In this document: positions 4,497-5,097 of the stretch, piece by piece
Layout: each line of letters opens with the position of its first letter
Numbering within the stretch: position 1 is the first letter of the stretch
Source of the DNA: Escherichia coli
GTDB lineage: Bacteria; Pseudomonadota; Gammaproteobacteria; Enterobacterales; Enterobacteriaceae
Assembly: GCF_001677475.2 (NCBI RefSeq)
Contig: NZ_CP015229.1
Length of the DNA: 64,000 nucleotides
Strand: one strand, 5' to 3'
The notes under the pieces: generated by a model
The model's database searches: none
Seen by the model: the letters and a program-made list of their open reading frames with translations, nothing else
What the model was told of the DNA's origin: nothing
Made by a program: the position numbers and the translations under genes

Positions 4497-5097
4497 TAAA
4501 ATTCTCCATAAAAAAAGAGAGACGAATCAATAACAAATATTAATTTATTGTTATTCTACGTCTTCCAAAAACGCGGCAGAGACTAGCAATATAAGGATGA
4601 AAATAAAAATTGATGGTGTGAATGATTTGGGGTGATTTATTGATTTACCTTCCCTTGCATTCATCATTTGAATAGCTATTTATTTTAGAGCAAGCGGTTA
4701 GGTGAGTATAAGAGTGTTTATAAGGGTGGTTTGATTTGTAACTCATTGATTTTTTTAATTTTATTATTTTTCTTGTGATTGATTGTAGTGTGTCATTTTT
4801 ATTATATATATATTTTAGTGTGTCATTTTGTATGCATTAGTTTTTCTGTATTTACATATTAGATTATCTTAATATAAAGTTTAATATTATTAATATATAC
4901 GTTAATTTTCATGTGTTTTTTTTGCCCATTTGTGCCTTTCTTGGGGGAATCTCACTTTTTTTTGATCTTAATTATCTAAAAGAAGAAAGGAATTTTAACC
5001 ATAAAGATTATGACTGGCATATCAGAGGCAAGAACCAGATTACTGATGCGTATTTCACTACGCATACTAGCTTGAATAATTAGAAAGGGGAGGGTGA
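4497..5097 (-). promoter_or_regulatory. AT-rich control region upstream of the yad fimbrial operon (promoter not mapped)
   Basis: 600 bp non-coding, strongly AT-rich stretch between folK stop and yadN start; contains a 14-bp direct repeat (4786-4799 and 4816-4829) and several TGATTT motifs. Confidence 0.5.

Follow-up and report, generated by a model that had tools for sequence, protein, structure and literature searches.

An AT-rich, putatively H-NS-silenced control region of a Yad-type fimbrial operon in a cryptic Escherichia lineage carries a lineage-specific repeat around a short TA tract

What does a perfect direct repeat mean when it stands in the control region of a fimbrial operon? The question is raised by a 601-bp intergenic spacer (4497..5097, minus strand) in a 64,000-nucleotide stretch of contig NZ_CP015229.1 (assembly GCF_001677475.2, deposited as Escherichia coli), which we call the window. 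Delimited by open reading frames (ORFs) and by Pfam HPPK and Fimbrial matches, this control region extends from folK to the gene of a Yad-type major fimbrial subunit. A first-pass annotation had described it as AT-rich, with a 14-mer occurring twice around an alternating (TA)5 tract, and had proposed that the phased repeats form a nucleation site for a nucleoid protein or an array of sites bound by a dedicated regulator. The base composition and the repeats, with their positions, are as the annotation described them. The reading that we place first, tentatively and with not quite even confidence, is that the spacer is a fimbrial control region subject to H-NS-type silencing and holding an ill-spaced core promoter, and that the repeat is a lineage-specific duplication, not a conserved phased protein-binding array.

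The spacer stands out from the window in its composition. Its G+C content is 28.5% overall and falls to 19% over the 200 bp from 4721, compared to 51.8% for the window, and it is the sole part of the 64 kb where the G+C content of a 200-bp segment drops below 33%. The TANNNT motif reaches a density of 8.5-12 per 100 bp, which is 4-6 times the window-wide density of 2.15, and TpA steps are 2.5-3 times as frequent as in the window. The spacer thereby combines the low G+C content and the dense promoter-like hexamers that characterize an H-NS-silenced "promoter island". A periodicity of A-tracts at 10-11 bp is absent from it. In E. coli, H-NS represses the yad promoter more than 100-fold, ArcA and temperature also affect it, and phase variation is absent (PMC13245861). 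Among the promoter islands associated with H-NS, one catalogue lists the K-12 yadN/folK spacer (PMC3661553), and yadN is induced upon SlyA overproduction (PMC5797941). Judged by its composition and by this analogue, which is one of function and not of sequence, the spacer is most likely a silenced fimbrial control region. As the cis-regulatory DNA of a chaperone-usher fimbrial operon of the Yad type, extremely AT-rich and crowded with promoter-like sites, it would be subject, as in E. coli yad, to xenogeneic silencing of the H-NS type. The nucleoid-protein proposal of the first-pass annotation is reasonable to the extent that the composition suits nucleoid-associated silencers, but the repeats find no support as a phased nucleation site. 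The repeat core, GTGTGTC, is the least H-NS-like piece of the AT-rich core of the spacer, and this G/C-containing sequence is unlike the consensus preferred by H-NS. Scans with consensus sequences for H-NS, Lrp, SlyA, ArcA, and IHF likewise gave no site on the repeats.

The repeat itself is unlikely to be a product of chance. The 14-nt sequence TAGTGTGTCATTTT is present in two exact copies on the plus strand (4786-4799 and 4816-4829), and no further copy is found in the 64-kb window when up to two mismatches are allowed. The match is longer than 14 nt, since 17 of 18 positions are identical between 4782-4799 and 4812-4829, at an offset of 30. On the minus strand, which is the gene strand, the distal copy (4812..4829) reads AAAATGACACACTAAAAT and includes a -35-like ATGACA (4826..4821), the proximal copy (4782..4799) reads AAAATGACACACTACAAT, and the two copies flank the (TA)5 tract (4803..4812). 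Dinucleotide-preserving shuffles of the 601-bp spacer produced an exact direct repeat of at least 14 nt in 16 of 2,000 cases and an 18-mer with at most one mismatch in 1 of 300; because the repeat is so rare in shuffles (0.3-0.8%), it is real and unlikely to be accidental, although it was chosen post hoc. The edges of identity, as read from the sequence, are sharp (17/18 inside and about 33% in the flanks), and both copies are G/C-containing islands within a background of 19-22% G+C. A simple 30-bp tandem duplication was rejected, as identity drops to about 33% in the 12 nt by which each unit exceeds the repeat. The sole array reported in the spacer by Tandem Repeats Finder (TRF) is a weak 9-bp one at 4745-4771. 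A metagenome scan with the pattern ATGACACACTA-N10-40-ATGACACACTA was uninformative: it returned at least 120 unrelated satellite-like loci, and neither the full 14-mer pair nor similarity to the spacer was seen among the matches listed. The first-pass annotation had also pointed to an iteration of TGATTT. Five copies are indeed present (4623, 4633, 4641, 4732, and 4747), but their enrichment is not significant, since 15% of the shuffles have some G/C-containing hexamer in at least five copies.

We collected 26 sequences of the same spacer, which represent 16 haplotypes, and compared the repeat copies and the TA tract among them. None of the 26 sequences differs in the distal copy, and with about 100 bp around it this copy shows zero substitutions across the 16 haplotypes. 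Two positions of the proximal copy, 4787 and 4792, are variable; 5 of the 26 sequences have an exact copy, 11 have a 13/14 match, and 10 have a 12/14 match. Exact proximal copies are limited to the sublineage of the window, and by parsimony the T at 4787, which makes the pair perfect, is a derived state that goes back to a single substitution in this sublineage. The tract is (TA)5 in 23 of the sequences, (TA)6 in L137 and L138, and (TA)7 in L152, and the offset between the copies is consequently 30, 32, or 34 bp. The two expansions are found on different, otherwise near-identical haplotypes and are therefore of independent origin. The description of an exact 14-mer pair "exactly 30 bp apart" thus fits the sublineage of the window, but elsewhere the copies agree at 12-13 of 14 positions and the offset takes any of the three values. 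These comparisons show that the 14-18-bp repeat is a lineage-specific local duplication bracketing a short, slippage-prone (TA)n tract. Two segregating sites fall within the 48 bp of the repeats. Per 100 bp, the number of segregating sites is 4.0 for the whole spacer, 2.0 for the spacer outside 4698-4747, and, at third codon positions, 1.9 for folK, 3.3 for the chaperone gene, and 9.8 for the major-subunit gene. The diversity of the repeats is not below the synonymous-site level, and nothing points to added constraint on either the repeats or their phasing.

By our scans, the repeat pair is also not conserved across the alleles at this locus, because the other alleles have no copy or a single one. 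Allowing up to three mismatches, we found no copy of AAAATGACACACTA in K-12, in L014, in L010, or in two Pseudocitrobacter loci, and E. marmotae has one 12/14 copy, which lies inside the spacer of its best promoter-like site, TTTACA-17-TATATT. The conservation in orthologous regions by which the first-pass annotation proposed to judge the repeats was accordingly not found in K-12, L014, or Pseudocitrobacter. These results bear on the possibility that the repeat copies are operators for a sequence-specific regulator, either a repressor or an Lrp-like protein, which would bind cooperatively at sites about three helical turns apart; with one copy over the -35 hexamer and the other over the predicted start, binding of the protein would block the promoter. 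The sharply bounded identity, the G/C-containing islands in an AT-rich background, and the position of the copies on either side of the best core promoter (described below) speak for such a pair, as does the precedent of Neisseria meningitidis nadA, where repressor sites flank a variable repeat (PMC3899988). However, strains differ at 2 of the 14 positions of the proximal copy and have spacings between 30 and 34 bp, the 64 kb contain no other copy, the other alleles are without the pair, and there is no regulator gene in or beside the spacer, whose neighbours are folK and the major-subunit gene. With regard to Lrp, GTCATTTT fits the Gnn(n)TTTt pattern of the pap sites, which we count in favour of an operator pair, but the Lrp consensus from systematic evolution of ligands by exponential enrichment (SELEX) has no match on the repeats with up to three mismatches. 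We consider an operator pair improbable, and the binding array for a dedicated regulator put forward by the first-pass annotation finds no support, in view of the same absence of the pair elsewhere, the same variation in proximal copy and spacing, and the same lack of an adjacent regulator gene.

The first-pass annotation could not place a clean -35/-10 pair in the spacer. Such a pair exists, and it looked unclean because its spacer is 14 bp. The hexamer ATGACA in the distal repeat copy matches 5 of 6 positions of the -35 consensus TTGACA, and 14 bp downstream of it the consensus -10 hexamer TATAAT (4801..4806, minus strand) is found at the gene-proximal end of the TA tract, giving a match of 11/12 overall. 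ATGACA-14-TATAAT is the sole gene-strand site with at least 10/12 matches when spacers of 14-19 bp are scanned. The range of the promoter scan tool is 16-18 bp, so the 14-bp pair falls outside it, and the tool ranks the same hexamers first in L137 (spacer of 16 bp) and L152 (spacer of 18 bp). Consensus matching is suggestive of ATGACA/TATAAT as the best sigma-70 core promoter in the spacer. At 14 bp, the two hexamers of the window and of most strains would be too close to each other, so that the promoter should be weak, and a weak, mis-spaced promoter would leave the operon poorly expressed or cryptic. Transcription starting about 7 nt downstream would put the proximal repeat copy at the extreme 5' end of a leader of about 300 nt.

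It could also be that the local duplication is neutral and without a role, that ATGACA/TATAAT is fortuitous, and that the functional promoter is located elsewhere, for example in an island at 4549-4623. Promoter-like sites are no commoner in the spacer than in its shuffles (4 found versus 4.3 expected), a gene-strand site of at least 11/12 occurs in 5.4% of the shuffles, the diversity of the repeats is not reduced, and length variation affects all simple-sequence tracts of the spacer, which is what neutral slippage predicts. The island (4549..4623, minus strand), which includes CATCAATTTT, CTCTGCCGC, and GAATAACA, is weakly conserved with L014 (68% over 78 nt, E = 1e-3); besides the ribosome-binding site it is the only segment that the window spacer has in common with this second allele family, and L014 has TTTACA-17-TATCCT there. 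The window homologue of that promoter-like site, however, matches the consensus at fewer than 9 of 12 positions. Against a purely neutral origin there also speak the improbability of the repeat by chance, the distal copy and its surroundings being substitution-free in 16 haplotypes, and the retention in E. marmotae of a related copy within its best promoter-like site. Such an origin is less likely than our first reading, though it deserves serious consideration.

The position of the TA tract between the two hexamers raises another possibility, namely that (TA)n is a contingency locus of the Haemophilus influenzae hifA/hifB type, in which slippage sets a spacing of 14, 16, or 18 bp and thereby switches or tunes the fimbria. 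All three spacings occur naturally (14 bp in 23 sequences, 16 bp in L137 and L138, and 18 bp in L152), they arose by expansions that are independent, the hexamers match the consensus at 11/12, and hif has (TA)9-11 between its -10 and -35 hexamers (PMC2651432, PMC3899988). Nevertheless, a tract as short as (TA)5 is barely unstable, 23 of the 26 sequences are at the "off" spacing, the length variation of other homopolymers in the spacer equals or exceeds that of the tract, and phase variation is reported to be absent from the Yad fimbriae of E. coli (PMC13245861). The (TA)6 allele, moreover, belongs to a lineage with a frameshifted usher, which fits neutral drift in a decaying operon. A contingency locus of this kind seems to us quite improbable. 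Very improbable is a combined arrangement in which the tract sets the 14-, 16-, or 18-bp promoter spacing while the flanking 14-mers serve as operator-like sites at a tract-dependent distance; if true, Escherichia would have a contingency promoter in the style of hif and nadA, besides the DNA inversion and Dam/Lrp mechanisms otherwise known for phase variation of its fimbriae.

Returning to a silenced control region with an ill-spaced promoter and a lineage-specific duplication, several points weigh against it. H-NS silencing is proposed here from the composition and from an E. coli spacer that is not homologous to that of the window. The sharp edges of the repeat are not those expected if a 30-bp unit had simply been duplicated in tandem in the recent past, and some force may have kept both repeat cores alike. 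The hexamer pair could be fortuitous at its frequency in the shuffles, and a promoter at 4801-4826 would imply a 5' untranslated region (UTR) of about 300 nt. In addition, the island at 4549-4623, common to another allele family, is far nearer to the gene and could hold the real promoter.

Several other features of the spacer were recorded. The sequence AATCAATGAGTTA (4739..4751, minus strand) matches WATCAANNNNTTR, the IHF core consensus, and is a lead only. Three variable sites lie in this IHF-like match (4744, 4742, and 4739), and all of them fall on N or R positions, a pattern that was noticed post hoc and has a chance probability of about 3.5%. Substitutions are concentrated in a hot spot at 4698-4747, densest at 4725-4744, which contains 13 of the 24 segregating sites of the spacer and has a nucleotide diversity (pi) of 0.058 versus about 0.01 elsewhere; it could be a recombination patch, or a relaxed or diversifying sequence. 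A T7 homopolymer at 4750..4756 (an A-run on the gene strand) ranges in length from 6 to 9 among spacers that are otherwise nearly identical, which implies at least four independent changes; the A6 state comes from a complete genome in which homopolymer sequencing errors may be present. Closer to the gene, a perfect 8-bp inverted repeat (AATAACAA / TTGTTATT, 4529-4555) with an 11-nt loop is found 33-59 nt upstream of the start codon. It is overlapped by TATTAATTTATTGTTA (4538-4553), which matches the ArcA direct-repeat consensus at 13/16 positions and is likewise a lead only; in K-12, an effect of ArcA on yad is reported. A ribosome-binding site, GGAG (4504..4507, minus strand), is located 7 nt upstream of the ATG at 4496 and is kept in all allele families. 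An Rfam scan of 4300-5300 with E-values up to 1 gave no match to a structured RNA, and the only ORFs within the spacer are short (up to 56 amino acids (aa)), none of them supported as a gene.

The gene order on the minus strand is pcnB, folK (5098-5577), the 601-bp spacer, the gene of the 192-aa fimbrial subunit (3918-4496), the chaperone gene, and the usher gene, and the operon thus lies immediately downstream of pcnB-folK, as in K-12. The chaperone is 60% identical to K-12 YadV and scores 360.6 bits with NF007398 (equivalog cut-off of 285), and the usher is 60% identical to K-12 HtrE and scores 1388 bits with NF007337 (equivalog cut-off of 830). By these protein matches, the operon is a Yad-type (YadV/HtrE) chaperone-usher fimbrial operon in a divergent allele. 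The major subunit is 40% identical to K-12 YadN and matches only the Fimbrial family in Pfam (35.6 bits), while its best NCBIfam match is StaA with 119 bits, below the cut-off of 230. The first-pass designation as the "yadN" upstream region was right in that this is a fimbrial control region, but the label is approximate at such an identity to YadN and with a spacer that cannot be aligned; on this comparison, "yadN" denotes by position what is a divergent allele of the Yad type in a cryptic Escherichia lineage. Third codon positions of the major-subunit gene are far more diverse than those of folK or the chaperone gene, which fits diversifying selection or recombination on the pilin. The usher gene is frameshifted after codon ~52 (…SDGNP) in L137, L138, and L143-L146, in its 5' end at about 2942-3100 (homologous to about 2900-3054 of the window), and the operon is probably inactivated in this sublineage, which includes the (TA)6 variant.

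Against all 5,424 E. coli genomes with a match, the pcnB-folK segment of the window shows 93-94% identity, and nucleotide homology to E. coli ends within the 3' end of folK, at about 5133-5156. Neither megablast nor blastn gave a match of the spacer in 5,426 E. coli genomes, and the major-subunit gene likewise gave none by blastn; no match of the spacer was found by blastn against plasmids. A protein-based search of the genome collection yielded 4 loci only. The same subunit allele is found in records labelled E. ruysiae, "unclassified Escherichia", and E. coli, and one of its carriers, CP089930.1, stands as a separate species representative. By these matches, the window falls outside E. coli proper and belongs to a cryptic Escherichia lineage.

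Further allele families downstream of folK were reached via chaperone homologues. E. marmotae (L013) has a 462-bp spacer and a chaperone 74% identical to that of the window, and the "Escherichia" type represented by L014-L016 has a 606-bp spacer and a major subunit of 43% identity. The spacers of all allele families have a G+C content of 25-30% yet can barely be aligned; the window and L013 spacers have a weak match of 67% over 118 nt. K-mer footprinting across the families was abandoned as too noisy in AT-rich DNA. At least four mutually unalignable allele families were seen, namely those of K-12, the window (E. ruysiae type), E. marmotae, and the L014 type, and this pattern suggests whole-locus allelic replacement at the folK-proximal locus via recombination in the flanks. 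Each family has its own control region, and regulatory findings on E. coli yad are therefore not transferable by sequence.

Comparison with known systems places the operon nearest to E. coli yad (yadN-ecpD/yadV-htrE-yadMLKC), which is of the same type and has the same position downstream of pcnB-folK. The two spacers are similarly AT-rich (26.6% G+C in E. coli yad and 28.5% in the window), but the K-12 folK-yadN spacer is 369 bp long and cannot be aligned to the 601 bp of the window, and K-12 yad has neither the 14-mer pair nor the TA tract. Two switches of Escherichia fimbriae were rejected. In pap, the Lrp sites follow the pattern Gnn(n)TTTt at intervals of about three helical turns, and the spacer resembles pap in being an AT-rich fimbrial control region with short T-rich motifs at about that spacing, but it has two sites where pap has six; a pap-type Lrp/Dam switch, in which two GATC sites lie about 100 bp from each other and each is part of an Lrp site, does not fit a single GATC (4964) lying outside the repeats and a lack of papI and papB homologues. 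A 13-nt inverted repeat (4510-4522 / 4950-4962; 92% complementary, low-complexity, A/T- and AG-rich) encloses the greater part of the AT-rich core in a fimS-like geometry. A fimS-type invertible element was nonetheless dismissed, as all 26 sequences are colinear and there is no adjacent recombinase gene.

The nearest parallels to the TA tract lie outside Escherichia. In N. meningitidis nadA (TAAA repeats with NadR operators), similar sites flank a length-variable repeat that sets their distance (PMC3899988), as the 14-mers flank the tract in the window; here, however, no regulator is encoded nearby, the sites are not both conserved, and the repeat is a short dinucleotide one. In H. influenzae hifA/hifB, (TA)9-11 sets the -35/-10 spacing (PMC2651432, PMC3899988). 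The window likewise has a TA repeat between a -35-like and a -10 hexamer, identified by consensus matching, upstream of the major-subunit gene of a chaperone-usher operon, and its natural variants differ by whole TA units among close relatives. It differs from hif in having 5-7 TA units instead of 9-11 and a single, non-divergent putative promoter, and in that most strains are at the 14-bp spacing. Taken together, the finding is real but ordinary, one more AT-rich and probably H-NS-silenced fimbrial control region, and the repeat itself, as a feature of a strain lineage, matters little. Its TA tract, set between a -35 hexamer close to the consensus and a -10 hexamer identical to it, nevertheless makes an Escherichia chaperone-usher fimbria a place to look for the simple-repeat promoter tuning that is well known in Haemophilus and Neisseria.
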